From: Candidatus Saccharimonadota bacterium
GTDB taxonomy: Bacteria; Patescibacteriota; Gracilibacteria; UBA1369; 2-02-FULL-48-14
Length of the DNA: 32,000 nucleotides
Assembly (NCBI GenBank): GCA_016699145.1
Contig: CP064962.1
Coordinates: 360,001 to 392,000, forward strand
Reading direction: 5' to 3'
Shown here: piece by piece, positions 1,396 to 26,945 of the stretch
Layout of the letters: each line of letters opens with the position of its first letter
How positions within the stretch are numbered: position 1 is the stretch's first letter
The notes under the pieces: generated by a model
Told to the model about the DNA's origin: nothing
The model's input: the letters and a program-made list of their open reading frames with translations, nothing else
Database searches by the model: none
Program-made: the position numbers and the translations under genes

Positions 1396-2178
1396 CTAAT
1401 TTGCTCCTAGTTTACTGCTAGACAGATACTCAATCTTGCCGGTATCTAGATGAAGCGCAAAAGTTGAAAAGTAATCGCTATCCGTACTAGGACCGATATA
1501 ACTCAACGTATCCTCATCTATCCATTGAGCTGAAAAGCCTACGTTATAATAAGGCTCTATTGCTTCAATGTCATAGGGATCCACTGAAACAAAATGGCTA
1601 TCTTGAAAATTTAAAACGTAAATCAGAGTACTGTGTGGAAAAGCCGCAGTAACATTGTCATTGATCGCAGTGATCACCAGTTGATCATAATCAGGACTCC
1701 AATTTCCTATCGAGGCACGCGTCTCCTTTGAAAAAGTGACTAGCGTGCTGACTTCATCTGTATAACGAGAATACAATTTGATAGAGGCCATATCGTGATC
1801 AACTCCTTTCGGTAAACCGTCATGAACTCCATATACGAAAAAATCCTCGTTGACAGATGAAATTTTTTCATTCATATGATAAGAGCCATCGAGAGGATAA
1901 GAACAGTGAACCTCTTCAGGACAAATCATTGGATCTCCATCCTTGTCCAGGAATTGAATAGTACAAGTAGAATCTTCACAAGTATTGGTCACCTTAAAAG
2001 TATTCCCTTCAAAAAGGGTGCTCGTCTGCAAAGGATGCACCAAGGAGTAATCACTCGTAGAAAAAATCTTAATGTCCTTGTCTTGAGCAATTGAATTTCC
2101 ATGAATAGGAGCTTCTTTGGAACAAGAAGCAAAGAGAATGAATATAGCGATAATGAGCAAGGAGTATTTTTGAACCAT
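1396..2178 (-). CDS. hypothetical lipoprotein
   Basis: ORF 1396..2247 trimmed to internal ATG 2178. MVQKYSLLIIAIFILFASC-SKE is a signal peptide plus lipobox. Confidence 0.6.
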   Translation of the reverse strand: MVQKYSLLIIAIFILFASCSKEAPIHGNSIAQDKDIKIFSTSDYSLVHPLQTSTLFEGNTFKVTNTCEDSTCTIQFLDKDGDPMICPEEVHCSYPLDGSYHMNEKISSVNEDFFVYGVHDGLPKGVDHDMASIKLYSRYTDEVSTLVTFSKETRASIGNWSPDYDQLVITAINDNVTAAFPHSTLIYVLNFQDSHFVSVDPYDIEAIEPYYNVGFSAQWIDEDTLSYIGPSTDSDYFSTFALHLDTGKIEYLSSSKLGAN

Positions 2179-2190
2179 TGTTTGTAGTAA

Positions 2191-2217
2191 GGCTACCCAC
2201 TCGGGTCTAGTACCCTT
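2191..2217. repeat. 27-nt intergenic element, copy 1 (most diverged)
   Basis: GGCTacCCACTCGGGTCTAGTACCCTT. It lies 12 nt upstream of the lipoprotein ATG (2178) and contains the TAG stop (2209-2207) of the preceding gene. Confidence 0.7.
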
Positions 2218-2482
2218 GAATGAAGGCCATGAATAGGTAGTAAGCAACAGTAAAAAAACTCAACTTTGCAAACTCTACAAAAAGAGCAATTAAGAATAAA
2301 AAGGGTTTAAACCCCTTGAAACTTCCCCAGTAGTCTTGCTCGTCTAATTGCTCATGAAAAGCATTTAAATAGGTATCCTTATAAGCTAACCAAACATAAT
2401 AGCCGGGGATGATTGGCGCTACAAATGCCATACTTTTATAAAACATAGGATGTTTATAGCTTATTTTTTGAAGATAAGTCAT
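2207..2482 (-). CDS. small hydrophobic membrane protein, hypothetical
   Basis: 91-aa ORF with hydrophobic helices (FVAPIIPGYYVWLAY, FLFLIALFVEFAKLSFFTVAYYLFMAF). It is bounded by repeat copies 1 and 2. Confidence 0.45.
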   Translation of the reverse strand: MTYLQKISYKHPMFYKSMAFVAPIIPGYYVWLAYKDTYLNAFHEQLDEQDYWGSFKGFKPFLFLIALFVEFAKLSFFTVAYYLFMAFIQGY

Positions 2483-2516
2483 GAGAATCAGGCGCCCAAA
2501 TTGGAAGGGTTACAAC

Positions 2517-2543
2517 TGGCTGGCTAAGCGGATCTAGTACTCT
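2517..2543. repeat. 27-nt intergenic element, copy 2
   Basis: TGGCTGGCTAAGCGGATCTAGTACTCT. It lies 34 nt upstream of ATG 2482 and abuts the stop (2544-2542) of the preceding gene. Confidence 0.75.
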
Positions 2544-2877
2544 AAGCCTTTTTCCGTAAAAAACTAATAAACAAACCGATAAAATAACCAAATACAAAAT
2601 GCTGGAAACTACCGAGCAGAGCAAGCACCATCAAATCTGTTGTCATGGACGCTCCTGCTAAAAAAGGGAGCGGAACGGATGTCATAATCAAACTGGCGGG
2701 CAAGTACCAAAATACCGGGAGAAAAGTCAGGCCATCCGCTGCATTTTCAGGAGAAATGAGGCTGCCCAAAAGCAATACAACCCAAAAGACCAAATCAAGA
2801 CTTAAAAATATTATTCCTAATCGGAAAGGAAGTTTTTTCATAATTTTTATTAACATCTCCCAGAGATAGTACCACAA
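2542..2877 (-). CDS. small polytopic membrane protein, hypothetical
   Basis: 111-aa ORF, largely hydrophobic. Alternative starts at M8 and M13 (MKKLPFRLGIIFLSL...). Confidence 0.45.
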   Translation of the reverse strand: MWYYLWEMLIKIMKKLPFRLGIIFLSLDLVFWVVLLLGSLISPENAADGLTFLPVFWYLPASLIMTSVPLPFLAGASMTTDLMVLALLGSFQHFVFGYFIGLFISFLRKKA

Positions 2878-2929
2878 TCGCTTCCTTCTCCCTAGGAAAG
2901 TGAGTCATAGGCTTTCAAACTGCCCGAAC

Positions 2930-2956
2930 TGGCTGGCCACTCGGGTCTAGTACTTT
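2930..2956. repeat. 27-nt intergenic element, copy 3
   Basis: TGGCTGGCCACTCGGGTCTAGTACTTT, between genes 2997..3461 and 2542..2877. Confidence 0.75.
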
Positions 2957-2996
2957 TTAAGCTATTTGATTACATCATTTACAGTTAATCAATGAC

Positions 2997-3461
2997 CTAA
3001 GACTTAGTATAATAAATTAATTGTGCCGGTTGATCATTGAAAACTTCATCTACAGGTAGCTCTAAAATAGGAGAACCTATTTCAGCACCCAATCTTGATT
3101 TTACAAAAATATTCCCTTCTATTTTACTTACTAATCCGGCATGTAGAATTTTAGGCCTGCCATTGGGATTGCACCAAACTGCAATATCTCCAATTTTAGG
3201 ATCTTTAGTTATTTTATAATCTCTATCAATCACAGCCTCCAGATCATGTGACCAAGCAAAGTATGCTTTATTACGTGCACCAATCCAAAACAGTACAGTC
3301 CCTCTACAATTTGGCGTACTAGTTTCTTCATCCAAGGCAGCTAATGCTAACTCAAATCTCCTTGTGAAGTCTGCAGTCGTAGTCACCTCATTTGGTCCAA
3401 TATCACCAAGAGTATCGTCACCCACATTATCCTGATAATATTCCGCAACTCTGCTTCTCAT
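2997..3461 (-). CDS. hypothetical protein, weak NlpC/P60-like (papain-fold hydrolase) features
   Basis: 154-aa ORF. NCRGTV (compare DCSG) followed about 55 aa later by GDIAVW...ILHAGLV (compare GDLVFF...HVGIY). Motif-level resemblance only. Confidence 0.45.
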   Translation of the reverse strand: MRSRVAEYYQDNVGDDTLGDIGPNEVTTTADFTRRFELALAALDEETSTPNCRGTVLFWIGARNKAYFAWSHDLEAVIDRDYKITKDPKIGDIAVWCNPNGRPKILHAGLVSKIEGNIFVKSRLGAEIGSPILELPVDEVFNDQPAQLIYYTKS

Positions 3462-3603
3462 AAGCTTTAAATATTTATCGCATAATTATAACATATTACT
3501 TCGACAATAAATAGAGGCCTTGTTTATAACACAAACAACATTATTTGAGGTTTTTGACTTAACTTCTCGGACTATATGTGTCCACTTTTGGGGTACAGAT
3601 CAT

Positions 3604-3630
3604 TGGCTGGCTAGTCGGGTCTAGTACCCT
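3604..3630. repeat. 27-nt intergenic element, copy 4
   Basis: TGGCTGGCTAGTCGGGTCTAGTACCCT, in the divergent gap between 2997..3461(-) and 3660..4457(+). Confidence 0.75.
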
Positions 3631-3647
3631 TAGACCTGTTTCCATGG

Positions 3648-3653
3648 TATAAT
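3648..3653 (+). promoter_or_regulatory. extended -10 (TGgTATAAT) placed for a leaderless transcript
   Basis: catgGTATAATctactgATG: TATAAT at 3648-3653, then 6 nt, then ATG 3660. No room for a Shine-Dalgarno sequence. Confidence 0.4.
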
Positions 3654-3659
3654 CTACTG

Positions 3660-4457
3660 ATGGAAAGAGAAATAGAAAATTTAGATCTCAGCAAAATACC
3701 ATACAAAGTTGAGGTGGTAGCGCCACATCTGCAAAAGCCAGGACTTAAATTCTCTTTACAGACCACTCCAGGTGTAACAGTTCTAGACTTATTAAGAGAA
3801 GGGATATTAAATACGGAGATCTTTGAAAGATTTGGCTTCGTTGTAATCGAAGATTATAAGATTAATGTTGAAGTGGAGGAAGAAGAAAAACCACCTATAG
3901 CCTTCGGTGAACTAGGGGATGCCTACAAATGCGACGAACAGGGACTTCACCAAGACAATGTCCCCGTAAGTATTAAAGAGAAGCCTTTGATCACGCTAAG
4001 AAGTGCTGACCGGGGAAGAATATCGGATACTATTGTGGCGGTTCCCAACCAAGAACTAATAAAAGCAATGGTTGATTTCATCAATAAGCTTGGCCCAGAT
4101 GAAATTAAAGAACTATCACCAGACCCTTTGAATATAGAGAGCTTCAGGAATTTGATAAAAGATGCTGGAATAGAGCTAAAGCCTCGCGACTTGAGCGAAC
4201 TAATCGTTAAGTTATTGCCTTTTAGAACCTATACAAGCTATGGAAATCCAGAACTGTACCGTGCCTTGAATCGAGCTATAGAAGCCCTCTTATATCGACA
4301 TAAATGGAAATCACATCAACTTCTAATTATAGACAATCAAGCCATGGTACATGCAAGAAGTTTACCTCCAGAGCTTGATACCAGTGAAATTACTGAAAAA
4401 TCTTATCTATTACGAAGGATAGTTACCTTGGAAGAAGGAAGAGGATTTAGACTTTAG
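3660..4457 (+). CDS. hypothetical protein, possible TauD/clavaminate-synthase-like Fe(II)/2OG oxygenase
   Basis: 265-aa ORF. GLHQDN (HxD) and LLIIDNQAMVHAR near the C-terminus resemble the facial triad and distal His/Arg of this fold. Weak, motif-level only. Confidence 0.5.
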   Translation: MEREIENLDLSKIPYKVEVVAPHLQKPGLKFSLQTTPGVTVLDLLREGILNTEIFERFGFVVIEDYKINVEVEEEEKPPIAFGELGDAYKCDEQGLHQDNVPVSIKEKPLITLRSADRGRISDTIVAVPNQELIKAMVDFINKLGPDEIKELSPDPLNIESFRNLIKDAGIELKPRDLSELIVKLLPFRTYTSYGNPELYRALNRAIEALLYRHKWKSHQLLIIDNQAMVHARSLPPELDTSEITEKSYLLRRIVTLEEGRGFRL

Positions 4458-4464
4458 AACAAAA

Positions 4465-4539
4465 TGGCTGGGGTGGAGGGATTCGAACCCCCGAGTGATG
4501 GATTCAGAGTCCATTGCCTTACCACTTGGCGACACCCCA
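4465..4539 (-). tRNA. tRNA-Gln (anticodon CTG), CCA encoded
   Basis: Folded by hand from the reverse complement. Acceptor TGGGGTG/CACCCCA, D arm GCC-AAGTGGTAA-GGC, anticodon stem ATGGA/TCCAT with loop CTCTGAA (CTG), T arm GGGGG-TTCGAAT-CCCTC, then G-CCA. Confidence 0.9.
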
Positions 4540-4599: not shown

Positions 4600-5472
4600 T
4601 CAAGGGCGGGAACCTGCCCAACGAACAGAATAGTGAAGAAGCTTATCAAAAGAGTCTCCACACCGTGTTGATTTCACCCGCTGAGTAATGATGACTTGTT
4701 CCGACAGAGCTCTTATCACTCCTAAGGAAGTAGCAGCCCATAGTACTCGCGCGCTACATTCACCAGACTGATCCTTATTGAACTCAATAGGCTGAAGATC
4801 CGTCACAGAAAGAGTGATTCCTCTCCTGGGATAATAAGGCTCAGTAGAGATTCTCCAACTCCCAACCAACCAACCCTCTAAATGACTGCCATAGTTCCAA
4901 GGGCCAGAGTTATGGATATCTGCATGAAAAAAGACCTCACGAGCAGGTGGAGCTTGACCTAGCAAACAAGATCGGACAGCCTCGACACCTAAAACAGAGG
5001 GTATTAAACGCATATCATCATAAAGAGACGATGCAGGCAAGGTCAGTGTAGATGCTCTCGCAGGAGAGGGGTCGAATTTACGAGGACCATATACCCATCT
5101 GTCGACGTCGGGACAAAGTTCCAAACAAGGAGATGATGATAAGGTGCAGTGCAAATTAGTGATATCCTCCTCTACCTGCCCATCATGACGTGGGTCACAT
5201 AATTCGGATGCATACCTTAGTCCTCTCAAGATACCCTGCCTATAGATCCGCAATTTAGGAACTGTAATATTCTCTAAGGGCAATTGAAACGTTTGACCAG
5301 TCCGAAGATCGGAATAAGTCAAAGAAGCAGCCTCCTCTGGAATATCCCCTGCTTGTTGATGAGGAAATCGGTTCTGATCCCATCTGCCTATCTCTTGATC
5401 TTTTGCATCGAGAATCAAACCTGCTTTTAAAGACATAAAACAAAAAAATAAGCCAACATCGTATCCCTCCAT
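4600..5472 (-). CDS. hypothetical protein (no recognisable motif)
   Basis: 290-aa uninterrupted ORF starting 25 nt after the gmk stop. An internal start at MSLKAG is possible. The length argues for coding, but I recognised no family. Confidence 0.5.
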   Translation of the reverse strand: MEGYDVGLFFCFMSLKAGLILDAKDQEIGRWDQNRFPHQQAGDIPEEAASLTYSDLRTGQTFQLPLENITVPKLRIYRQGILRGLRYASELCDPRHDGQVEEDITNLHCTLSSSPCLELCPDVDRWVYGPRKFDPSPARASTLTLPASSLYDDMRLIPSVLGVEAVRSCLLGQAPPAREVFFHADIHNSGPWNYGSHLEGWLVGSWRISTEPYYPRRGITLSVTDLQPIEFNKDQSGECSARVLWAATSLGVIRALSEQVIITQRVKSTRCGDSFDKLLHYSVRWAGSRP

Positions 5473-6973: not shown

Positions 6974-7441
6974 TTAAAAAGGAAGGTCGTCGAGAGTCAC
7001 AGCAGCCTCTTCGGGAGTTTCACTGGTGGAAGGGGTCTGAGACTTGATCGCACTGCTGTTGCTGGAACGTTCATAAGTTGCATCCACGCCTTCCCCAGTA
7101 GGAGCTCCACTGCGATCCAAAAGGATGAGTTGCTCGGCCACAATTTCCATTTTGCTGCGCTTATGACTGTCTTCGCCTTCCCATTCTCGGGTTTGCATGC
7201 GACCTTCCACAAAAATCTTTCGGCCTTTTTTTAGGTAAGCTTGAGCGATTTCAGCCAATTTGCCCCAAAGCACAATGTTGTGAAATTCAGCCTTTTCTTG
7301 TTTTTGTCCGGCCTTATCGATCCAAGTGCTATTGGTCGCAATACCAAAGGAAGCCACCATCTGTCCACTGGAAGTTTGACGGACTTCAGGATCACGAGTC
7401 ACGTTCCCAATCACTTGAGCACGGTTGAGAGAATACGCCAT
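6974..7441 (-). CDS. ssb: single-stranded DNA-binding protein
   Basis: OB-fold N-terminus (LNRAQVIGNVTRDPEVR...FHNIVLWGKLAE), a disordered tail, and the acidic tip DDLPF. Confidence 0.9.
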   Translation of the reverse strand: MAYSLNRAQVIGNVTRDPEVRQTSSGQMVASFGIATNSTWIDKAGQKQEKAEFHNIVLWGKLAEIAQAYLKKGRKIFVEGRMQTREWEGEDSHKRSKMEIVAEQLILLDRSGAPTGEGVDATYERSSNSSAIKSQTPSTSETPEEAAVTLDDLPF

Positions 7442-9441: not shown

Positions 9442-9516
<75 letters not shown>

Positions 9517-9572
9517 CATTTGATATATTAAACATTTTATTTTATAATACCAACTTATTACTCTGAGAAACC

Positions 9573-10403
9573 ATGCTATTCTCTGGTGAATTCATTCCAG
9601 AAGATAAAATTGATCCGAGGCCGATTGCCGAGGGAACTCGAGTGCGCGTGCATCGTTTGCAAGGCCACGATGGACTTAATGGACGAATTTTACGAGTTCC
9701 AAGAGATCCTGAACGAGATCATCACGAGACGGTTCAGATGGAACTACTAAAGGGAGGGCCTCTGACAAGTTTTTTGCCTGATCCTGAAACCGTTCGTGCT
9801 AGGATCGGGGATAGAGTAAGGAATTTGGTTACGAGCCTAGAGGTTACTTCCTCTTTGCATCGAGTGGTACCTAGCGCAGAAAGTTTCGCTTATGAACTGC
9901 AAGCCAAGGGGGATATAGACGCTCAGATTCACTACTTGCAACAACTGAGAGGGTTCGTTGATGCTTGTAAGAACACTTACAAGCAGTCCTGTATCCTTCC
10001 CGACTTGATTGGAAGAGGGAATGTTGTTTCTGACTCCAATGGAATTTGGCTGCTCGACTTCAACAACATCTCGGGACAATGGACGGTAGGTCCAGAAATT
10101 CAGGTGCCTTTGGATGATCAAGGTCTACCCATTTTTGACATGGGTTTGCAGTTGCTTCACAGTATTGAGAAAAAGCTACTCACACAGCGTGGAACTAATC
10201 TATCAACCGAAGCCTTCAACAGAAAGTACAGCCAAGAAAGAAGGCCTCAGAGAACCGAGCTTCCAAAAGAACTTCTGGAAACTCTTGTCAGCGCAGACGA
10301 TCTCAAAAAAGATCCATTCTACGGAGCCTTACGCTTTAGAAAACGTAGGCAAAAAGTTCAGTCTATCTTGGATAAGATGATGAGAGACAGGATGGTCCAT
10401 TAA
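9573..10403 (+). CDS. hypothetical protein, possible atypical kinase-like fold
   Basis: 276-aa ORF. ILPDLIGRGNVVSDSNGIWLLDFNNIS resembles a catalytic loop (D..G.GN) plus a DFx metal-binding motif. Weak. Confidence 0.5.
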   Translation: MLFSGEFIPEDKIDPRPIAEGTRVRVHRLQGHDGLNGRILRVPRDPERDHHETVQMELLKGGPLTSFLPDPETVRARIGDRVRNLVTSLEVTSSLHRVVPSAESFAYELQAKGDIDAQIHYLQQLRGFVDACKNTYKQSCILPDLIGRGNVVSDSNGIWLLDFNNISGQWTVGPEIQVPLDDQGLPIFDMGLQLLHSIEKKLLTQRGTNLSTEAFNRKYSQERRPQRTELPKELLETLVSADDLKKDPFYGALRFRKRRQKVQSILDKMMRDRMVH

Positions 10404-10468
10404 CATCTCCTAAAAGAGCAAATACCTGACTGAACAGAAGATTTCCTTTGAGTGCAGCCCAATTCAGA

Positions 10469-10500
10469 GTTCTGAACTTGTCCACAAGGGGGAGCCATTT
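10469..10500 (+). repeat. decayed copy 1 of the tRNA-Asn 3' end
   Basis: GTTCtGAActtgTCCAcaaGGGGGAGCCATTT, compared with tRNA GGTTCGAATCCAATCGGGGGAGCCA. Confidence 0.75.
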
Positions 10501-11121
10501 AGGCTAACTTCTTCACCGTTTCCTCAAGAGCAGCTCGAATCAACTTTTCGAGCAAAGTAGACTCACCTCCATCGGCTGCTGCAAGAGCTTTCACATATTT
10601 GGTTCTACCCACTTTAGTTCCCACTTTCAGCTCAATCGGAGGCAAATTGAGTTTCAACAAAATCATACTGATCAAAAGGCGTCCGATTCGACCATTGTAG
10701 TCAAAAAATGGGTGAATCCATAGAAAACGGTGATGCATCCAAGCTAAAAACTCTACAAGCTCATCCAAAAACTTTTTATCCTCCAAACCAGGCAAAGATT
10801 TAATCCTAATTTTCAAATCTTCGGAAAAATCTTCCATCATCTGGGGAACTTGAAAGAAACGGGGTGGGTTGTGCTTTGAAACGGTCACTTCAATCGTTCT
10901 AAATTTCCCAGCCATGTCAGGGAAATCCATCCAAACCCCACATGATGAACTTCTCTCAAGAAAGCAGGTGTGAAAAGCAACTTGTCCTTAGCTTGAGATT
11001 CCAAAACAAAATCCCAAGCCTTCTTAATTCCTTCAATTTCCAAAGGAATAAGTTTTGATCTTGGAATAATACCAAAAGCCGTCTCTTTATAACTCGTTTC
11101 TCCTTTTCTTTTGCTCTTCAT
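10499..11121 (-). pseudogene. Fic/DOC-family protein (AMPylase-type toxin) split by a frameshift
   Basis: Track ORFs 10885..11121 (...FLREVHHVGFGW) and 10499..10930 (MDFPDMAGKFRT...WIHPFFDYNGRIGRLL) are the two halves of one Fic domain. The span is 623 nt, which is not a multiple of 3. The frames meet near 10925-10940. The Fic motif is HPFFDYNGRIGR, which is the canonical HPFx(D/E)GNGRxxR with G changed to Y. Confidence 0.7.
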
Positions 11122-11297
11122 ACAGAGGGAAACTTACGAAGCACCTGTCTCACCATTCTAAGCGTTGTTTCGGGATTTTCAGTTTTGGTCGTACGATAAA
11201 TCATCTGTTCCTCAAAAGAACTCATGTACTTTGCTCTTTTTTGGGGAGAAGCTTTTTGATACTTCCTGAACGCATTGAGAATGTTTTTGATGGGCAT
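11118..11297 (-). CDS. 59-aa putative Fic antitoxin carrying an inhibitory (S/T)xxxE(G/N) motif
   Basis: Own translation: MPIKNILNAFRKYQKASPQKRAKYMSSFEEQMIYRTTKTENPETTLRMVRQVLRKFPSV. TTKTEN fits [ST]xxxE[GN]. Its TGA overlaps the Fic ATG (ATGA at 11121-11118). It is below the track's 60-aa cutoff. Confidence 0.5.
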   Translation of the reverse strand: MPIKNILNAFRKYQKASPQKRAKYMSSFEEQMIYRTTKTENPETTLRMVRQVLRKFPSV

Positions 11298-11316
11298 ATA
11301 AACTTAGTGTATTTTG

Positions 11317-11357
11317 ATTATAGCAAAATGCAAAATGAACGTCATGCACATTGTGCA
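11317..11357 (-). promoter_or_regulatory. candidate promoter and operator of the Fic module
   Basis: The minus strand reads TGcTATAAT (-10 at 11322-11317), 19 nt before ATG 11297. A 13-nt palindrome TGCACA-T-TGTGCA at 11345-11357 lies just upstream. Confidence 0.35.
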
Positions 11358-11396
11358 CTTCCCCAGAAAAGGGGGTTGGGTTCTTGCTGCACAAAA

Positions 11397-11430
11397 GTTC
11401 GGATTGCATCAAATACGGGGAGCCATTTAG
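11397..11430 (+). repeat. decayed copy 2 of the tRNA-Asn 3' end
   Basis: GTTCGgATtgcaTCaaatacGGGGAGCCATTTAG. It retains T-loop-like GTTCGgAT as well as the terminal GGGGAGCCA. Confidence 0.75.
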
Positions 11431-11476
11431 TTTTGCAGATTAAAACCGCACCCAGCCAAGTTGGACGATCGAACTT

Positions 11477-12358
11477 CTATTTGAGCAAAGAAGCAAGGTT
11501 TGCAGAAAAAGGACCGTATAACTCCACTCGTGGACCTGCCATCCTATTGAGATAAAAAGTGGCTGCCTCTTTGCTTTCATATCCTTCCTCGGCATAGATG
11601 GAAATGAAATTCACTTCACGGTCTGAGTTTTCTAGGTAGAATCGTTTCGGCTCCCCTTCCTCATTACGGATAAGCACGTAGCCTTCTGGAGCAAGGTTAT
11701 TAGTAATATTTCCTCCAGCTGAATACTCACTTTCGTATTGAATCACTTCGGTGAGAAGAAAATATTCCTCTAGGGTAGAAAATCCCAAATCAAAAACTTC
11801 CGTGTTCAGTTGATTGTCAGAAGAATCGTACGCCGAAACCTCCATCGAATTGAAGAAACTATACAGGTCTTTTTCAAATTGATCCCATGCTTCTACGTAA
11901 TCAAGTCCGAAAACCAAAAAGTACGTTGACTCTCGTATATTCACATAGTAACACCACGCCCCTAATCCACAGGGGAGCTCAAACCATTTCCCAGAAGTGA
12001 GCTCGGGCAAGGCAATAAGTCGCTCTTCGTCGTCATCAGTGATTTCAAGATTACCCTCCACCGCAAGATCCATAATTGACCCTTCTTTTTGATTTTGCAG
12101 CTCTATATCCGCTCCGCCAATGTAAGCCTCTACAGCATTCCAACCTTCGGGCAGAGTGAAGCTGAGTCCCTCAACATTAACAATAGATTCACCTTCTTGA
12201 TTTACAAAAAGTCCCTCTTCATTGACTCTGCCTCGGAGCTCATAATCTTCCTTCACCTCTTCTTCGTAAGGCTCCACCATTTCCTGTTCGTAAGCTTGGC
12301 TACAAGCAGGAAGAATAAGAAAGAACAAAAAGCCGGAAATAAGTTTTGGATGTGACAT
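11477..12358 (-). CDS. hypothetical acidic lipoprotein
   Basis: ORF trimmed to ATG 12358. MSHPKLISGFLFFLILPAC-SQ is a signal peptide plus lipobox, followed by a Glu-rich linker. Confidence 0.6.
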   Translation of the reverse strand: MSHPKLISGFLFFLILPACSQAYEQEMVEPYEEEVKEDYELRGRVNEEGLFVNQEGESIVNVEGLSFTLPEGWNAVEAYIGGADIELQNQKEGSIMDLAVEGNLEITDDDEERLIALPELTSGKWFELPCGLGAWCYYVNIRESTYFLVFGLDYVEAWDQFEKDLYSFFNSMEVSAYDSSDNQLNTEVFDLGFSTLEEYFLLTEVIQYESEYSAGGNITNNLAPEGYVLIRNEEGEPKRFYLENSDREVNFISIYAEEGYESKEAATFYLNRMAGPRVELYGPFSANLASLLK

Positions 12359-12484
12359 AAAATTCAGTGAGTAAAACAAGTATACCCCCATCACGCTCCC
12401 GCCAATAGTGCATTATACCGGCACTTTTAAAAGCTTCCCCATTTCTCAGATTTCGCCATACCATTCAGTTCGCATACTAACCCT

Positions 12485-12739
12485 TTAGTTTTGATGATTA
12501 TCCACATCGAAAACAATCAAATTTCCTTGTCCATCAAAAACACCTAGAGCTCGAAATTGGCGATTGATACGAAAATACCAAATGCCACTTCCCTTTGGGT
12601 TCCTTTCTTTGAAGCGTACTTGGACTGCACTGCCTTCGAGCAGATATCTTTTTGCTTTTTTATACTGTTCAAGAAGCCCCCTCTTTTGCAAGTAGGGTAG
12701 AACGTCCTTTTTTTCAAAAATGTTAGGGACTTCAGGCAT
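12485..12739 (-). CDS. RelE/HigB-superfamily type II toxin
   Basis: 84 aa. The C-terminus GIWYFRINRQFRALGVFDGQGNLIVFDVDNHQ matches the ...yRi...R....d...l.i..i..H pattern. The start lies 3 nt after the antitoxin stop. Confidence 0.6.
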   Translation of the reverse strand: MPEVPNIFEKKDVLPYLQKRGLLEQYKKAKRYLLEGSAVQVRFKERNPKGSGIWYFRINRQFRALGVFDGQGNLIVFDVDNHQN

Positions 12740-12741
12740 AT

Positions 12742-12996
12742 CTACAAATTCAACAGTTCTTCTTTAGGAGTATTCCGAGCCTGTTCTGCCAAAGAAAGCA
12801 TCTCATGGCCCACCTCTTCCTTGGGGAGTTCAATCAAATCGGGTCGAATGAGCATTTCATACTCTTCGACATCAAGAAGCACGGCAATAGGTGCATTATT
12901 GGAAAAAATATATTTTGGCCCTCGCTGAAGACCCTGCAAAGACTCTTTCGTTTTAGTCCTAAGATTCGTCACAGATATAACCTGTTGTCTTAACAT
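12742..12996 (-). CDS. Phd/YefM-family antitoxin
   Basis: MLRQQVISVTNLRTKTKESL...PKYIFSNNAPIAVLLDVEEYEML is the typical Phd/YefM N-terminal pattern. I prefer ATG 12996 over the TTG at 13014. Confidence 0.65.
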   Translation of the reverse strand: MLRQQVISVTNLRTKTKESLQGLQRGPKYIFSNNAPIAVLLDVEEYEMLIRPDLIELPKEEVGHEMLSLAEQARNTPKEELLNL

Positions 12997-13000
12997 AATT

Positions 13001-13018
13001 AAATTTGTTAACAAATTT
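13001..13018 (-). promoter_or_regulatory. 18-bp perfect palindrome, candidate TA operator
   Basis: AAATTTGTTAACAAATTT lies 4 nt upstream of the antitoxin ATG and downstream of a TATAAT (minus strand, about 13028-13033). Confidence 0.45.
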
Positions 13019-13070
13019 GTATATAAATTATATATTAAATATCATACCAATGCAAATAAAGCTCTAATTG

Positions 13071-13094
13071 CTTCCAGCTTGGGGGAGCCATTTT
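13071..13094 (+). repeat. decayed copy 3 of the tRNA-Asn 3' end
   Basis: cTTCCAgcttGGGGGAGCCATTTT, compared with tRNA aATCCAatcGGGGGAGCCA. Confidence 0.7.
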
Positions 13095-13124
13095 ATAGAT
13101 AATACCGTGAGTAGAAATAGAATG

Positions 13125-13556
13125 CTACTCTTCAGCAGGATAGAAGTTGATACCTTCGAGTTCCCACACGTCCGATTTGAAATCGTAAGACCAAATCACA
13201 TCCACTAAGCCCCTACTTTCATCGCTGAAAATACTGGAACCCGTCAAGGTGATGTGGGCATGACGTCCTCCATAGGCTGCATCGTAAAGAGCCCAGTTAA
13301 CAGAGGTACTCTCGAAAGTAACCTGGCTCAATCCTTGAAAAGTGGGGCTCTGAACCAAGGCTTCAAAGTCTTCATAGGAAGTGATTTCCTGAAGAGTATC
13401 GCTGGTCTGTGCATAAGCAGCTTCAGGATCCACTTTAGCGAGCTCTATAAAGGCTTCTGTTTTCAGTTTTCCTTCCTCTGGTCCAAACATAGGAGCGCCC
13501 GTGCAGCCCATTAAGAAAAAGCTACTAAGCAAAACGGTGGCGAGAAGTTTTTTCAT
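13125..13556 (-). CDS. hypothetical lipoprotein
   Basis: ORF trimmed to ATG 13556. MKKLLATVLLSSFFLMGC-TG is a signal peptide plus lipobox. Confidence 0.6.
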   Translation of the reverse strand: MKKLLATVLLSSFFLMGCTGAPMFGPEEGKLKTEAFIELAKVDPEAAYAQTSDTLQEITSYEDFEALVQSPTFQGLSQVTFESTSVNWALYDAAYGGRHAHITLTGSSIFSDESRGLVDVIWSYDFKSDVWELEGINFYPAEE

Positions 13557-13605
13557 AAAAATCAAGTTTAAGCCCGGCACCAATTTACTCTTTTTTAATA
13601 AGCAC

Positions 13606-13625
13606 GCAATCCAGATCTGGATTGC
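13606..13625. promoter_or_regulatory. 20-bp perfect palindrome in a divergent intergenic region
   Basis: GCAATCCAGATCTGGATTGC, between 13125..13556(-) and 13743..14753(+). Confidence 0.35.
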
Positions 13626-13693
13626 CAATCTATTTTTCGTAATGAACAATGGAAGTAAACCCTCCAAAGGCCATATTGAGTTCTTGTCCTTCC

Positions 13694-13714
13694 CTTTTTT
13701 TGAGATAGTCTCTA
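13694..13714. repeat. solo copy of the 21-nt MITE-like terminal repeat
   Basis: CTTTTTTTGAGATAGtCTCTA matches 20 of 21 positions of 26924-26944. It lies 28 nt upstream of ATG 13743. Confidence 0.6.
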
Positions 13715-13742
13715 GAGTTTACTAGCCTCAACGGACTGGTTA

Positions 13743-14753
13743 ATGAAAAAAGGAACACCCTATCTGACAGCACTCATACAAAAATTGGCTCCAAAAGTGG
13801 GCGCAAAAGTCATAATTGAACCAAAATGGAAGATTGTGGCGCAAATACGCTATAAAAATGGAGTGAATCGCTACCTTCGTTTTTATACGCTAGACCTCAA
13901 TCCTGTCGGAGCATCCGATATCGCAAAGGACAAAGGGTTTGCAAAATTTTTCATGCAAAAAATGGGTTATCCAATAGCCAATGGAAAAGAATTTTTTAAA
14001 CCTTCGTGGGCAAAAGCCATTGGAAGCAAAGATACCGCCAAAACAGCTCTTGGCTATGCAAAAAAGATCGGGTATCCCTTGATTGTAAAACCAAATTCTT
14101 CCAGTCAGGGCTACGGAGTCACCTTGGTCCATAATTCAAAAGAGCTGCTGAGCGCACTGAACCACGCTTTTCAGGATGATCGTGTCGCTCTTGTTGAAGA
14201 GTACAAACCTGGAAAGGATTATCGAGTGGTGACTCTGGATGGGAAGATCATTTCCGCGTACGAAAGAATTGCACTTTCAGTGACTGGCGACGGGAAAAAG
14301 AATATTGGTGAACTTCTTTTGGCTAAACAGAAACTGTTTAAAAAAAAGAAACGAGACACACGAATCGACATTCACGATCCACGCATTTTAAAAACCTTGA
14401 AATCGAAAGGCAAAAACTTGAAAACCGTGCTAGCGAAAGAGGAAAAAATAACCCTACTGCCAAACGCCAATCTTTCAACTGGCGGTGAATCAAAAGATGT
14501 AACCGAAACCATCCATCCAAAATTTAAAAAAATAGCGATCTCTCTAACAAAAGACATGGGCCTCAGAATAGCCGGGGTCGACATCATGGTGACTCAAGGG
14601 GAAATCACCGAGGCTCCAAAGAAAGACGGCTATTACATTATTGAGATCAACGCCGCTCCTGGACTCGACCACTACGTGACCACTGGAAAAGCACAGAAAA
14701 AAATCGTAGAAGCCATGTACCTCAAAGTGCTAAAGGCAATGAAGAAAAAGTGA
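13743..14753 (+). CDS. stand-alone ATP-grasp enzyme resembling the N-terminal ATP-grasp half of cyanophycin synthetase
   Basis: GYPLIVKPNSSSQGYGV, EEYKPGKDYRVVTLDGKIISAYERI, GDGKKNIGELL, NLSTGGESKDVTETIHP, GLRIAGVDIMV, YIIEINAAPGLDHY. No Mur-ligase-like C-terminal domain is present. Confidence 0.7.
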   Translation: MKKGTPYLTALIQKLAPKVGAKVIIEPKWKIVAQIRYKNGVNRYLRFYTLDLNPVGASDIAKDKGFAKFFMQKMGYPIANGKEFFKPSWAKAIGSKDTAKTALGYAKKIGYPLIVKPNSSSQGYGVTLVHNSKELLSALNHAFQDDRVALVEEYKPGKDYRVVTLDGKIISAYERIALSVTGDGKKNIGELLLAKQKLFKKKKRDTRIDIHDPRILKTLKSKGKNLKTVLAKEEKITLLPNANLSTGGESKDVTETIHPKFKKIAISLTKDMGLRIAGVDIMVTQGEITEAPKKDGYYIIEINAAPGLDHYVTTGKAQKKIVEAMYLKVLKAMKKK

Positions 14754-14790
14754 TTGCAGTGTAAGACTGGGTTAAAAAGCAAATAAAAGC

Positions 14791-14796
14791 TATAAT
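14791..14796 (+). promoter_or_regulatory. -10 TATAAT placed for a leaderless transcript
   Basis: gcTATAATgacaccATG: the hexamer, then 6 nt, then ATG 14803. Confidence 0.4.
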
Positions 14797-14802
14797 GACA
14801 CC

Positions 14803-15459
14803 ATGAAAAAAATTCTCCTCTTGGCTCTCTGCATTTTCCTTTGTGCGTGTTCAAATACGCAAAAGGTAGGAAAACCCATTAAAGTCAAAGTAATACGACT
14901 GACTCCTGTTTCTATTGCAGAAGACCCCTTCAATCCCAATGCATTCGCAGCTGATCTCGAGCAAACGCTGGAGGGTCCTACAAATATGATCGATATTTTT
15001 TACAGCTTCCCCTATGGCTATCTCAGCCATTTCACCAAGGAAGAGCGTGAAGAAATAATGCAGCACGAAGAAGCTTATTTTCTCGTCGATGAAAAGAATC
15101 ACTACCTAAGCTTCGACATCCCTGCTACCCAAACCGACGATTTTGTCTTCAAAGTTTTTATCGACCAAGATGAAAATTGGCTCATCGCTCACTCTGAACA
15201 CATATGTCCAGCCCACTGTACACAATACCTGAGCTTCTACCGATTCAAAGAAGGAGAATGGATCGATGTCAGCGCAAGTTATTTGCCTCAGTTGGATTTG
15301 GCCTTTGACGTAGAAGACAATGGAAAAAACTTCTTCTACTATCATCAAATTTCTCAAGAAGGAGCAGAAATAAAAATCATAGGAGGAAGCAGTGAGGACA
15401 AGCCGCCGGCACTCCCCTTATTCAAATGGAATGGAGTGAGTTTTGATGTCTCCAATTGA
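14803..15459 (+). CDS. hypothetical lipoprotein
   Basis: MKKILLLALCIFLCAC-SN is a signal peptide plus lipobox. 218 aa. Confidence 0.65.
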   Translation: MKKILLLALCIFLCACSNTQKVGKPIKVKVIRLTPVSIAEDPFNPNAFAADLEQTLEGPTNMIDIFYSFPYGYLSHFTKEEREEIMQHEEAYFLVDEKNHYLSFDIPATQTDDFVFKVFIDQDENWLIAHSEHICPAHCTQYLSFYRFKEGEWIDVSASYLPQLDLAFDVEDNGKNFFYYHQISQEGAEIKIIGGSSEDKPPALPLFKWNGVSFDVSN

Positions 15460-15947
15460 TCAAAATGATTATCGAATTTTTCCGAGTTCGTAACCTAGCT
15501 GGGCTCACCTCAAACATGCAAATCGGGCTGTTAGTCCTCGCCTACCTCGTGACCACGGTTTGGGTTTACATGCACTGGAAAGCCACAGGTGAGTTCTTTG
15601 GCAGCAGTGGAAGCTTTCAAAGTATTTTTGCACCCTTCTACGAAGAAATGATTTTCCGTGGTTTAATCCTGGGTGGACTCGCTTCCCTATACAGCAAAAG
15701 AACCGCCATTTGCTTGAGCAGTTTTCTATTCGGAATTTGGCACCTCAAAAACTTCCCTATCCATTCGAGTGAAGCCCTTATCTACCAGGTGCTCTACACT
15801 GGATTGATCTTGGGACCTTTGCTGGCTTGGCTAGCTCTGCGTGTGAAAAGCATATGGCCTGGGGTACTCATCCATGCGACCAACAATCTGCTTTCCCCCT
15901 TGAGCTGGTGGATCATAGGGTTGTTGGGCTATCAAAGTCTTTTCTAA
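15456..15947 (+). CDS. CPBP-family intramembrane glutamic endopeptidase (CAAX protease/Abi-like)
   Basis: FYEEMIFRGLIL (EExxxR), FGIWH and HATNN motifs on a polytopic membrane background. The TTG at 15456 overlaps the upstream stop. ATG 15465 is an alternative start. Confidence 0.75.
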   Translation: MIKMIIEFFRVRNLAGLTSNMQIGLLVLAYLVTTVWVYMHWKATGEFFGSSGSFQSIFAPFYEEMIFRGLILGGLASLYSKRTAICLSSFLFGIWHLKNFPIHSSEALIYQVLYTGLILGPLLAWLALRVKSIWPGVLIHATNNLLSPLSWWIIGLLGYQSLF

Positions 15948-15956
15948 TCCAATACG

Positions 15957-17095
15957 TAGTTTCACGAATTTCAAGTACAGCTCAGGGGAAAAGGAAGAGG
16001 GAGTAGAGTAGAGATACTTTACTTCTTCACCCCAACTCCCTCATGGAACAATATAACATGACGAAAGGCATTCGTGGACTGAGAAGATTACTTCGGCAGT
16101 TTAACGAAGCTACTTTAAAGCCCTGGCAGAGAGACGTACTTAGAGAAAGAATCCTTATTTTGGATTGGTACGACCATAATGGAAAGAATAAAGCCAAGAC
16201 TGCCAGGGCTTTTGAAACTTCTAGAAGCCACGTACAAAAGCTGGTGAAGGCCAGAAAGGAAGAAGGACTGGGTGGTCTTATTCCGAAAATAACAGGACCC
16301 AATAACAAACGTGGATTTAATCTCACCAGTGAAGAGAAACAAGAGATTGAACGCTATGCAAGGATGTTTCCAGATTGGAGCCACAAGAAGCTTCACATGT
16401 TTCTTCACCAGCACAGCATTTCCACCTTGTACCGCTATTTGGCAGCAAAAGGATTACTGGTTCGTAATCGCTGCCCCGGGTTTCACAAGAAACCAAAACC
16501 TAGGTCTGCTTGGAAAGTCCAAAGAAAGAAACTCCCCAAGGACTACCAAATCTTAAAACCTGGAGACTTGGTAGTCCTAGATTCCATCGTTGAGTTTGTG
16601 GACAGCGCCTTCAACAAACTGTACTTCATTACCTGTGTGGATGTGGCCACCAGGATAGGTTTTGCACTCGTAACCAAGCACCACAGTTCCAAGGCGGCCA
16701 AAGCTTTGCTGGAAAAGATGGAAGAAGTGCTCCAGACCAAGATTAAAGCTGTTTTAACAGACAACGGCAGTGAGTTCCTGGCGTACTTCCATAAAGCCTG
16801 CCAGCAGCAAGGGATTGAGCACTTCTTCACTCGCCCCAGAACACCAAAAGATAATGCGATTTGTGAGCGATTCAACCTTACTTTGCAACAACACCTCTAC
16901 TGGAGAGTGGACTTAACCAGTCCCATTTACAAGATTAATGAGGTGCTCGCGGATTGGCTCGTGGAGTATAATTGCCTTCGTCCACATGAATCTCTCAATA
17001 TGAGACCTCCAGTTGCTCACTACTTTCATCTATTCTACTCCCCTCGCCCCATCCCCGAGGTGTACTTGAAACTATGGAACCGGACATCCAATTGA
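15957..17095 (+). mobile_element. IS481-like insertion sequence (single DDE/rve transposase) with long imperfect terminal inverted repeats
   Basis: The left end TAGTTTCAcgaatttCAAGTACAgCTCaGGGGAaaaGGaaGAGGGAGTAGAgTAGA (15957-16012) pairs with the reverse complement of 17025-17074 (TAGTTTCAAGTACAcCTCGGGGAtggGGcGAGGGGAGTAGAaTAGA). The transposase ORF reads through the right repeat and stops 21 nt beyond it. The exact termini are uncertain. Confidence 0.6.
16043..17095 (+). CDS. DDE transposase, integrase-core (rve) domain, IS481-family-like
   Basis: 350 aa. N-terminal HTH-like region. Catalytic residues in VVLDSIV, VLTDNGSEF and NAICERFN, with C-terminal YNCLRPHESL. Confidence 0.8.
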   Translation: MEQYNMTKGIRGLRRLLRQFNEATLKPWQRDVLRERILILDWYDHNGKNKAKTARAFETSRSHVQKLVKARKEEGLGGLIPKITGPNNKRGFNLTSEEKQEIERYARMFPDWSHKKLHMFLHQHSISTLYRYLAAKGLLVRNRCPGFHKKPKPRSAWKVQRKKLPKDYQILKPGDLVVLDSIVEFVDSAFNKLYFITCVDVATRIGFALVTKHHSSKAAKALLEKMEEVLQTKIKAVLTDNGSEFLAYFHKACQQQGIEHFFTRPRTPKDNAICERFNLTLQQHLYWRVDLTSPIYKINEVLADWLVEYNCLRPHESLNMRPPVAHYFHLFYSPRPIPEVYLKLWNRTSN

Positions 17096-17107
17096 CGTAT
17101 GCAGCCT

Positions 17108-17133
17108 GGTTACGATATAATACATTCGTAACC
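17108..17133 (+). promoter_or_regulatory. -10 box nested in a perfect 8-bp inverted repeat, candidate TA promoter/operator
   Basis: GGTTACGA-TATAATACAT-TCGTAACC, ending 12 nt upstream of ATG 17146. Confidence 0.45.
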
Positions 17134-17145
17134 AATCTAGATCTT

Positions 17146-17361
17146 ATGATTAGCGCTCGATCAACCATTTCATTTACGGACAACAATTGGACGAAGCTGA
17201 AAAAGGAGGAAAATAAAAGTAAGCTGGTTAATAAAGCTTTAGAGTTTTATTTTGGATCTAAAAAACTGCTCAAACAAAAGGAAGAGGAATTCATTCTGAA
17301 CGAACTCGCCCACTTTGAAAGCACAGGTGAGGTCTACTCATTTGAAGAAACCTTCAATTAA
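17146..17361 (+). CDS. putative antitoxin of the RelE/ParE module
   Basis: 71-aa ORF (track ORF 17074..17361 trimmed to ATG 17146) immediately upstream of a RelE/ParE toxin. No family motif recognised. Confidence 0.5.
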   Translation: MISARSTISFTDNNWTKLKKEENKSKLVNKALEFYFGSKKLLKQKEEEFILNELAHFESTGEVYSFEETFN

Positions 17362-17386
17362 CACTCAATCAAGCCGAGCTTTAAAA

Positions 17387-18511: not shown

Positions 18512-18641
18512 AAGTATAAATCAAATTCCTTAGCTCAGCCAGACCACAGACTCAATCTTTCCCTAGATCTCCTTTTAGACTAGGAGCTGTTAACATAAAT
18601 ATAGGAGTGGTGTAGAGTGAAGTTACTCTAACCCTAACGCC

Positions 18642-18995: not shown

Positions 18996-19030
18996 GCCGA
19001 AGTAGAGGTGGGTACACTACAAAAATTCAC

Positions 19031-19897: not shown

Positions 19898-19899
19898 CA

Positions 19900-20032: not shown

Positions 20033-20090
20033 GAGCTGTTAACATAAATAGAGGAGTGGTGTAGAGTGAAGTTACTCTAACCCTAACGCC

Positions 20091-20453: not shown

Positions 20454-20478
20454 AGGTGGGTACACTACAAAAATTCAC

Positions 20479-20868: not shown

Positions 20869-20874
20869 CAGCTC

Positions 20875-26944: not shown

Positions 26945-26945
26945 T

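Follow-up and report, generated by a model that had tools for sequence, protein, structure and literature searches.

Behind tRNA-Gln in the stretch of DNA analyzed here (the window, 32,000 nt in length) lies an array of small units, each closed by one copy of a conserved 28-bp element. These copies most likely represent the conserved arm (P half-site plus common core) of an integrative-element site at the 3' end of tRNA-Gln, served by a clade-specific large serine recombinase (LSR). The reading draws on the equivalence of tRNA and element junctions, the link of the element to tRNA-Gln, a quasi-palindromic attP, the adjacency of LSR genes and the tRNA, and the compactness of the single-ORF units, each established at the level of sequence. 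The layout of element-bounded single-gene units behind tRNA-Gln is common to many Peregrinibacteria (CPR) genomes. The genomes of CPR bacteria are tiny, a host-dependent lifestyle is presumed, and gene gain and loss in these organisms is little understood. The present results point to a clade-wide, sequence-defined stacking of accessory genes behind two tRNA genes, and they provide the 28-bp element as a search key to such variable regions in any Peregrinibacteria assembly. The features of the array are listed below from the tRNA outward.

4465-4539, minus strand: tRNA-Gln(CTG), detected with ARAGORN and matching the Rfam tRNA family with 64 bits
3660-4457, plus strand: TauD-family gene (Pfam TauD, E 5e-7), cargo of unit 1, antisense to the array
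3604-3631, minus strand: element copy D, AAGGGTACTAGACCCGACTAGCCAGCCA, ending unit 1, with two mismatches to the cross-species consensus
2997-3461, minus strand: gene for a 154-aa protein with a weak CHAP match, cargo of unit 2, the ORF making up 72% of the unit
2930-2957, minus strand: element copy C, ending unit 2
2888-2929, minus strand: P'-type half-site, GTTCGGGCAGTTTGAAAGCCTATGACTCAC..., opening unit 3, the inverted partner of the element
2542-2877, minus strand: gene for a small membrane protein without Pfam match, cargo of unit 3, its stop abutting copy B
2517-2544, minus strand: element copy B, ending unit 3, with six mismatches
2207-2482, minus strand: gene for a small membrane protein without Pfam match, cargo of unit 4, its stop being a TAG within copy A
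2190-2217, minus strand (the array orientation): element copy A, farthest from tRNA-Gln, with the degenerate core GGGTAGCCT
1396-2178, minus strand: lipoprotein gene without Pfam match, starting about 12 nt past copy A

The tRNA is followed by four units of 327-861 bp, each with one closing element. In three of the four, the only ORF is co-oriented, poor in promoters, and placed tightly against the element; in unit 2, this ORF stops 39 nt ahead of copy C. A homologue of the unit 3 cassette is present in locus L003 (67% at the amino acid level), and a stop at the same element offset as the TAG of unit 4 recurs in seven units across loci. The lipoprotein gene represents the oldest cargo or, alternatively, the original flank. 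No element was found beyond it, and an IS200-like Y1 transposase remnant adjoins the array farther out. The G+C content of the array region is 0.38-0.39, compared to 0.47-0.50 around it. Upstream of the tRNA are gmk and a 290-aa ORF without Pfam match.

Most of what the first-pass annotation had described in this region was reproduced. It had reported four co-oriented copies of the element and none elsewhere in the window: its degenerate 27-mer finds exactly four sites at up to three mismatches and none in 100 shuffles, the 12-nt core CGGRTCTAGTAC is confined to the four copies, and a scan of the 32 kb at up to seven mismatches adds no others. Its position and strand for tRNA-Gln, the terminal CCAGCCA matching the element and the distance of 835 bp agree with our analysis, as do the TAG stop codons inside copy A (2209-2207) and abutting copy B (2544-2542) and the distances of about 142, 52, 34, and 12 nt from element to next start. 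Two values were revised, since related genomes give an element of 28 nt rather than 27 and the diverged copy starts at 2190 rather than 2191. The description of the unit 2 product as NlpC/P60-like is reduced to a sub-threshold CHAP match (E 0.006, 17 bits versus a cutoff of 26).

Read in tRNA orientation, the consensus of the 28-nt element from related genomes is AAGGGTACTAGACCCGAGTGGCCAGCCA. Its last seven nucleotides are identical to the last seven of tRNA-Gln, CCAGCCA (4465-4471). An ungapped comparison with the consensus of the 3'-terminal 28-mer of tRNA-Gln gives 16 of 28 identical positions, including GGGT.C.A..CCC and CCAGCCA; at this level of identity, the element does not itself represent a fragment of a tRNA. 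True partial copies of tRNA-Gln do bound some units, with 18 nt exact in L022 and a close variant in L017. A common core of 7 bp would fit a tyrosine recombinase as well. Exact pattern matches number 60, in 47 loci from 35 assemblies, and the full 28-nt consensus is present in all. Nearly all of these assemblies are Peribacteria, Peregrinibacteria, or Gracilibacteria MAGs, across which the element is almost invariant.

No structure or transcription signal was detected in the element, in line with the earlier statement that it is neither palindromic nor an attC site nor a terminator. The fold of the 28-mer is not significant against shuffles (z -0.7 and -0.1), its stem comprises only 3-4 bp with uncompensated variants, and paired inverted attC-like core sites that fold to a hairpin are absent. 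A search of the window and six loci against Rfam at E <= 1 returned true tRNAs only. A scan for sigma-70 promoters (two hexamers at a spacing of 16-18 nt) and intrinsic terminators (a GC-rich hairpin ahead of a T run) gave totals at or under shuffle expectation, and no call coincides with any of the four window copies; the consensus scan likewise called no promoter at a long-form copy in L037. Several further candidates were considered and rejected: a sigma-54 promoter (spacing and strand wrong, as judged by eye), a dif/Xer-like site (no dyad symmetry in the 28-mer), an IS200/IS605 end (left end not conserved, hairpin weak), and a tRNA minihelix (acceptor strand without partner).

The element is tightly linked to one tRNA. 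Sixteen tRNAs were found in the 47 loci, 15 of which are tRNA-Gln, and the element is 3' of the tRNA-Gln and co-oriented with it in all 15 of these genome loci and likewise in four metagenome loci. The search of relatives suggested in the first-pass annotation thus ties the element to the 3' flank of tRNA-Gln, always in the same orientation. The same annotation had noted that copies scattered upstream of unrelated genes would indicate a generic promoter; one complete genome does carry copies in four further regions whose 8-kb blocks are free of tRNAs. Of these four regions, three or more look like the right ends of large islands rather than generic promoters.

Comparisons between loci reveal that tRNA and element ends share the DNA that follows them. 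The TauD unit of the window is 85% identical over 817 nt to sequence in L043, and the homology stops at the core TGGCTGG; past this point is the tRNA body in the window and another diverged element in L043. A similar relationship is seen between the tRNA end of L036 and the element end of L044 (74% over 545 nt, aligned from position -5) and, within L022, between the tRNA end and an element end (97% over 133 nt). As the same DNA follows in register after the ...CCAGCCA of either a tRNA or an element, the two ends behave as interchangeable recombination junctions in these alignments. This extends to the P'-type half-site of the window (2888-2929), of which 40-43 nt are also found after the element in L010, L035, and L037 (95-98% identical) and in near-identical form directly after tRNA-Gln in L048. 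The distal motif of P', TATGACCC, was located with at most one mismatch in 15 of 121 junction flanks, where 0.9 would be expected, and stands at +21 in 11 of the 15. A recognizable P' half-site is therefore present at about 12% of junctions, such that most small units, if circularized, would be without a canonical attP.

The content of the arrays is variable and the architecture of their units uniform. In genomes with a common tRNA-Asn/MTase/SSB/gmk/tRNA-Gln block, the DNA 3' of tRNA-Gln is hypervariable. L023 and L047 carry one cassette with different neighbors on both sides, and the homology is confined between the two bounding elements; the leading elements are 100% identical and the whole cassette 76%. 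A scan of metagenomes anchored on gmk found no relative of the same species, the best match being 77% identical, and no record matched any of three window proteins looked up by exact sequence. Among 46 units of 200-1400 nt between junctions, 39 contain a single co-oriented ORF, with median gaps of 25 nt ahead of the start codon and 4 nt from stop to element, and stop codons are found repeatedly at the same positions within the element. Among the cargo are genes for lipoproteins, membrane proteins, secreted proteins, and toxins as well as defence genes. Together, the tRNA-Gln link, the exchange of junctions, and the variable content support the original description of the region as a cassette-like array.

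The candidate enzyme is an LSR encoded near the tRNA. The L056 protein combines Resolvase, Recombinase, and Zn_ribbon_recom domains, and its family comprises more than 120 clusters at 54-98% identity. Homologs are encoded in L128-L134 and L137; four distinct ones lie 1.1-2 kb 3' of tRNA-Gln, where the junction bears a P' site. Beside tRNA-Ser, where a related LSR is encoded, the TGACCC P' motif is retained at about +24. On contig JABJMC010000005.1, a 17.4-kb island is bounded by tRNA-Gln and an LSR gene (37.7-41.1 kb) and, at its other end, by a co-oriented element (23.59 kb); this is the one contig on which both island ends were seen, with 3.7 kb of the middle unread. Joining the island ends rebuilds an attP of about 60 bp with the inverted half-sites GGGTACTAGACCCG...GCCAGCCA and GGGTCATAGACCTG...GCCAGTAA. 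It is quasi-palindromic (outer 14 nt 11/14, inner 8 nt 6/8), and the element corresponds to one half-site. A direct repeat GACCCGAG in P' was considered and rejected, the motif being an inverted copy of the outer part of the element. The earlier proposal of a recombination system that targets tRNA ends is strengthened by the serine recombinase that adjoins the tRNA end of such islands.

The same annotation had advised looking for a recombinase beside other copies, and one is encoded near tRNA-Gln in other genomes; the 32-kb window itself contains no recombinase gene or LSR homolog. Pfam analysis of 191 ORFs (at least 180 aa) from the 47 element loci gave no recombinase family among those shared by at least two ORFs. 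A scan of viral contigs with the element pattern gave no matches and hence no free attP. No conserved B' half-site was detected in the flank that follows 'empty' tRNA-Gln ends, which is atypical for an LSR attB. The distal motif stands at the same spacing in the element (P half) and the tRNA (B half); in characterized LSRs, it is placed differently in attP and attB. We infer that the LSR is the enzyme for the element sites and acts in trans on the window units, and the small units are presumed to be mobile rather than residues of larger elements.

A mechanism can be proposed on this basis. The 3' end of tRNA-Gln (4465-4471, CCAGCCA) would be the primary attachment point, providing a B half-site and the common core. 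The outer part of the element, GGGTACTAGACCCG, would be the recombinase recognition motif, mimicking the tRNA T-arm in register, and the inner part, GCCAGCCA, which matches the acceptor end of tRNA-Gln, would be the place of strand exchange. DNA of the form element|P' integrating at the tRNA end would yield tRNA|P'...cargo...element|old flank, and repeated integrations would push older units outward to give the order tRNA, unit, element, unit, element. The ORFs of the window units are probably read from upstream, as in integron cassettes.

We weighed three other explanations. It is unlikely, though conceivable, that the junctions are real and made by another enzyme, with the LSR a mere neighbor: either a tyrosine recombinase for which CCAGCCA is a 7-bp overlap, or a single-strand HUH enzyme that recognizes the small hairpin and cuts about 11 nt downstream. 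An overlap of 7 bp, the length of the identity between tRNA and element, is usual for tyrosine recombinases, and the second half-site is missing at most junctions; Phage_integrase, however, does not appear in the list of families obtained from ORFs of the element loci. Also in favor of another enzyme are the geometry common to T-arm and element, a 7-nt loop at a constant distance from the CCA end, and the adjacent Y1 transposase remnant. Yet this remnant has flanking hairpins of its own that are unrelated to the element, and the element stem of 3-4 bp forms no significant fold and changes without compensation. The attP of about 60 bp with two half-sites, and the LSR repeatedly beside the P' end, fit an LSR instead.

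The remaining two explanations dispense with recombination at the element. A cis-regulatory signal (part of a promoter, operator, or 5'-UTR) of genes for secreted and membrane proteins, with the proximity to tRNA-Gln incidental, seems very unlikely to us. It would account for the median position 25 nt ahead of co-oriented starts, which by eye are without Shine-Dalgarno sequences, and for an element far more conserved than neighboring coding DNA (100% versus 76%). About a quarter of copies are moreover preceded by a conserved module of about 100 nt, in which direct repeats of TGTCTCA are spaced by 10 nt and a -10-like box stands 13 or 20 nt ahead of the element. The element itself has no -35/-10 pair, however, and no promoter was found at the window copies or at a long-form copy. 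Several copies face the 3' ends of convergent genes or are followed by the next copy after 33-100 nt, and the ORF of the preceding gene extends into the element. A regulatory role also leaves unexplained the identity to the tRNA 3' end, the exclusive tRNA-Gln link, and the exchange in register. We give hardly any credence to the element as an RNA mimic of the tRNA 3' half, through which tRNA-processing enzymes would cut a tRNA-Gln co-transcript into single mRNAs. The register of GGG, 7-nt loop, CCC, and 7+1+3 nt ending in CCA, with 16/28 identity, resembles a tRNA, and the units run in the same direction as tRNA-Gln without promoters of their own. Against this, the acceptor strand has no partner, the fold falls short of significance (z -0.7), variants disrupt the stem with no compensating change, and Rfam gives no match even at E <= 1; RNA processing alone also cannot yield homologous DNA in register at different junctions. 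The LSR attachment site remains our preferred reading.

A broader interpretation is offered more tentatively, as a possibility that we hold to be somewhat less probable than its negation. Peregrinibacteria may possess an LSR-based functional counterpart of integrons, with the 3' end of tRNA-Gln as fixed entry site and single-gene cassettes that each end in a T-arm-mimicking 28-bp half-site. The module of about 100 nt, at the right end of large recombinase-carrying islands, would be a promoter that reads the array. The recombinase, by pairing the tRNA-side junction with alternative elements, would pick up, deposit, and shuffle cassettes, and a parallel system with its own recombinase would operate at tRNA-Asn within the window. 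If single cassettes are mobile, a serine recombinase would here perform cassette capture in convergence with integrons. Its two sites, with one half-site that mimics a tRNA, would also make a compact natural pair for this recombinase family.

The element-bounded cassette layout at tRNA-Gln is apparently new to the literature, as no account of it turned up in full-text searches by sequence or by related concepts. Among known systems, the tycheposon arrays of Prochlorococcus (10.1101/2020.12.28.424599) share with it the integration at a tRNA site, newcomers that push older units out, a repeated attachment sequence between units, and a hypervariable tRNA flank; some elements of this type also use large serine recombinases. 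The repeats of tycheposons are partial tRNA copies, however, and their units are multi-kb with an integrase or its remnants (10.1101/2020.12.28.424599). In the Peregrinibacteria array, by comparison, the units are separated by a 28-bp non-tRNA arm that has only seven contiguous nucleotides in common with the tRNA and is nearly invariant class-wide; most of these units consist of one ORF (0.3-1.3 kb) and lack a recombinase.

The array resembles integrons in its compact, co-oriented, mostly promoterless single-ORF units, which end in a site that may overlap the stop, as well as in its one primary insertion point and its accessory cargo of toxins, membrane proteins, and secreted proteins. It differs in its primary site, the 3' end of a tRNA, and in its candidate enzyme, a serine recombinase; a tyrosine integrase of the IntI type was not found, and the element has neither a palindrome nor a folded attC-like structure. 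In the SCC elements of staphylococci, Ccr large serine recombinases integrate at the 3' end of rlmH. These elements are similar in pairing a serine recombinase with the 3' end of a conserved gene and in forming tandem arrays, some units of which have no recombinase and lie between short direct repeats; their target is protein-coding, though, their units measure several to tens of kb, and their repeats derive from the target, with no conserved 28-bp half-site. A parallel at the level of sites is with phage LSRs such as those of phiC31, Bxb1, and A118, whose attP sites of about 50-60 bp consist of two half-sites with proximal and distal motifs. Like these, the system described here has a quasi-palindromic attP, a short core common to attB, and a recombinase gene at one end. 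Unlike these, it shows no conserved B', its target is the 3' end of a tRNA, and its P half mimics the T-arm at equal spacing.

A search of the window with the degenerate 27-mer (up to three mismatches) returned exactly four copies of the element, all on the plus strand and all within 2190-3631, while 100 shuffles returned none. This agrees with the first-pass annotation, which had also reported no copy elsewhere in the window: a 12-nt core is unique to the four, and a relaxed scan (up to seven mismatches) made no addition. Its distances and stop-codon positions were correct on recheck, as was the identity of the element end CCAGCCA, in tRNA orientation, to the last 7 nt of tRNA-Gln. Two of its details are revised, as the copy placed at 2191 starts at 2190 and related genomes show the conserved unit to be 28 nt rather than 27 nt. 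The gene described as NlpC/P60-like is called CHAP-like here, its sole domain support being a sub-threshold CHAP match. The array has a G+C content of 0.38-0.39, compared with 0.47-0.50 in its surroundings. Its opposite-strand gene has a TauD-family match in Pfam, and the cargo other than this and the CHAP-like gene has no Pfam match. Units are defined as the DNA between successive junctions, a junction being the end of the tRNA or of an element.

Layout of the tRNA-Gln array, in tRNA orientation
4465-4539, minus strand: tRNA-Gln(CTG)
Unit 1, next to tRNA-Gln: TauD-family gene, antisense; closed by copy D
3604-3631: element copy D, 28 nt
Unit 2: CHAP-like gene; closed by copy C
2930-2957: element copy C, 28 nt
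Unit 3: full P' half-site at its start (2929-2888), followed by a gene for a membrane protein; closed by copy B
2517-2544: element copy B, 28 nt
Unit 4: membrane protein whose stop codon is the TAG within copy A
2190-2217: element copy A, 28 nt
After copy A: lipoprotein gene, last in the array

The element is linked to tRNA-Gln well beyond this window. A single scan of 185,579 species-representative genomes with the pattern GGCTNNCYANNCGGRTCTAGTAC gave 47 loci in 35 assemblies, and the full consensus AAGGGTACTAGACCCGAGTGGCCAGCCA was present in every match. Nearly all are Candidatus Peribacteria, Peregrinibacteria or Gracilibacteria MAGs, with a few contigs under other bin labels. Copies run co-oriented, 1-7 per run, at spacings of 60-5,000 nt. 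ARAGORN found 16 tRNAs on the 47 loci, of which 15 are tRNA-Gln (CTG or TTG) and the last a tRNA-Asn syntenic with the window; the elements lie 3' of tRNA-Gln and in its orientation in 15/15 loci. Given that a Peribacteria genome carries 46 tRNA genes (PMC4736985), this link cannot be chance. In metagenome loci anchored on gmk, the block tRNA-Asn, methyltransferase, SSB, gmk, tRNA-Gln is conserved, and the DNA 3' of either tRNA varies from locus to locus with few exceptions, some loci having elements and others none.

On the basis of comparisons between loci, the element ends are predicted to be recombination junctions. Over 817 nt, the window's TauD unit and locus L043 are 85% identical, and the homology ends at TGGCTGG, beyond which lies the tRNA body in the window and another, diverged element in L043. 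Likewise, DNA past tRNA-Gln in L036 matches DNA past an element in L044 from position -5 over 545 nt. The second cassette past the tRNA in L023 (625 nt) and the first one past a long-form element in L047 (628 nt) are homologous from leading to trailing element and not beyond on either side. In L022, one 133-nt stretch follows both the tRNA and an element (97% identity). This unit is non-coding, begins with TTGAAA, a hairpin and TTTCAA, and has no Rfam match. It occurs twice in L022 and once in L017, after the second element, and closes with a copy of the tRNA-Gln 3' end (exact over 18 nt in L022, a close variant in L017). L053 has two tRNA-Gln(CTG) genes (3918-3992 and 7148-7222) 3.2 kb apart around a small island, the distal one slightly diverged and ending in CCAACCA; this looks like an integration that brought a full tRNA copy.

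One contig allowed an attP, the joined ends of an integrated island, to be reconstructed.

Features of JABJMC010000005.1
41,012-41,086: tRNA-Gln
37,730-38,998: large serine recombinase (LSR; L129)
23,590-23,617: co-oriented long-form element (L016)

The tRNA-Gln with the LSR and the element bound a 17.4-kb island, of which 3.7 kb in the middle was not read. Its ends join as AAAAGGGTACTAGACCCGACTGGCCAGCCA | TTACTGGCATGTTTACAGGTCTATGACCCACATT. The right half, reverse-complemented, is AATGTGGGTCATAGACCTGTAAACATGCCAGTAA, so the joined site is a quasi-palindrome of two half-sites, each with one outer (GGGTACTAGACCCG or GGGTCATAGACCTG) and one inner motif (GCCAGCCA or GCCAGTAA). The element is the predicted P half-site. 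Of 121 non-redundant junction flanks, 15 contain the P' outer motif TATGACCC with up to one mismatch, where 0.9 would be expected; in 11 of the 15 it sits at +21. A recognisable P' site is present at only ~12% of junctions. No conserved B' half-site was found. Ungapped, 16 of 28 element positions equal the consensus tRNA-Gln 3' 28-mer (GGGT.C.A..CCC plus CCAGCCA), so that the element mimics both the T-arm and the acceptor end of the tRNA, with register preserved. Beside tRNA-Ser, a recombinase of related type retains TGACCC at ~+24 after the tRNA, which suggests that the outer motif is tied to the enzyme family and the inner core to the target tRNA. Recombinase-carrying islands (L056 ~10840, L004 ~1470, L129, L137) also have a third, partial outer-motif copy, TACTAGACCCG, directly oriented and lacking the CCAGCCA core, ~100-140 nt in from their tRNA-proximal end. 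L140 has it too, next to tRNA-Ser; an accessory or regulatory role in binding is possible.

The candidate enzyme was found in L056 as a 430-aa protein with Resolvase, Recombinase and zinc-ribbon domains, encoded 1.1 kb 3' of tRNA-Gln. Its island also carries terminase and ParB-methylase genes and shares 60-83% protein identity with the sequence that precedes long-form elements of L027 and L021; in L035, a recombinase C-terminus remnant directly follows a long-form element. The family comprises >120 clusters (54-98% identity), some members being named Candidatus Peregrinibacteria. Members P0004, P0013 and P0028 each lie 1.2-2 kb from tRNA-Gln(TTG), gene 3' end toward the tRNA, and their loci share a conserved P' sequence past the tRNA CCA, e.g. 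TTACTGGCATGTTTACAGGTCTATGACCCAC. No recombinase was found in the 32-kb window, so any recombination activity there would be in trans.

Among 63 inter-junction units, 46 are 200-1400 nt long; 39 of these hold a single co-oriented ORF (at least 60% of the unit, usually 86-99%) and three an opposite-strand ORF. A median of 25 nt separates the junction and the start codon, and a median of 4 nt the stop codon and the element. Stop codons fall at fixed element positions, with TAG at 9-11 in seven units and a GACTAG-variant TAG at 19-21 in four. Random decay of large islands would not give such tight, oriented packing, which recalls integron cassettes. For the small units, one possible route is integration in the form of small circles; another is deposition or pick-up during excision of a large island that uses a different element copy as partner. 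The very small units, namely P' plus element (127 nt, L046) and spacer plus element (58 nt, L069; 61 nt, L027), fit either route. Core decay in the window is strongest in copy A, the one most distant from the tRNA; this fits accretion with the newest unit next to the tRNA. Just past the last unit, the stretch 841-1375 holds an IS200-like Y1 transposase gene (Pfam Y1_Tnp on 1064-1300) disrupted by frameshifts or stops, together with the GC-rich hairpins that flank it (~841-870 and ~1330-1375). On the other side, a 290-aa ORF without Pfam match (4600-5472) separates gmk from tRNA-Gln; it looks like an insertion 5' of the tRNA, given that L010, the nearest relative, has gmk immediately next to the tRNA.

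Fold, Rfam, promoter and terminator tests all speak against the element as a signal in RNA or in expression. The 28-mer has no folding advantage over shuffled versions (z -0.7), and its variants disrupt a 3-4 bp stem without compensation. Rfam matches at E <= 1 were tRNAs only, and no promoter or terminator consensus site falls on the window copies. Outside the window, roughly one copy in four is a long form (L037 2350-2491, L008, L013, L017, L021, L025, L035, L044, L047 and others), with a sharply bounded conserved module of ~100 nt upstream. This consists of CCC-T5-ATAC followed by direct repeats of TGTCTCA with a spacing of 10 nt (as many as four in L009), and then a -10-like box that precedes the element by 13 or 20 nt. 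By eye the module looks like a regulated promoter reading through the element, although the consensus scan does not call it. Convergent genes are what several of the long forms face. The direct repeats resemble binding sites of the response-regulator or arm type. The module marks the right end of large islands and heads several cassette runs.

A second array in the window seems to follow the same logic.

Features of the tRNA-Asn array
9442-9516: tRNA-Asn(GTT)
10489-10497, 11417-11425 and 13082-13090: three co-oriented repeats of the tRNA-Asn 3' end (GGGGAGCCA + TTT)

The units that these repeats delimit carry a Fic/DOC toxin, lipoproteins and toxin-antitoxin-like pairs, within ~17.4 kb (9517-26945) inserted relative to L010. 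A separate, different LSR overlaps the tRNA-Asn 3' end in L059 and L067. GTTCTGA is the arm motif of one window repeat (10468-10497), and its inverse TCAGAAC lies ~45-50 nt past the tRNA-Asn junction in L010 and L056. The island also contains two copies of a ~97-nt sequence (18579-18676 and 20030-20125), ~74% identical to the start of L022, and the window a DDE (rve) transposase gene at 16043-17095.

A literature text search found no description of this system. A simple partial-tRNA repeat was rejected as an account of the element. The array shares its unit architecture with integrons but differs in that no IntI was found and a folded attC is absent, and it was not accepted as an integron on these grounds. 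Tycheposon islands (10.1101/2020.12.28.424599) follow the same logic of tandem integration at tRNA genes. That the system is a serine-recombinase counterpart of the integron is a tentative proposal, which we consider possible yet somewhat doubtful.
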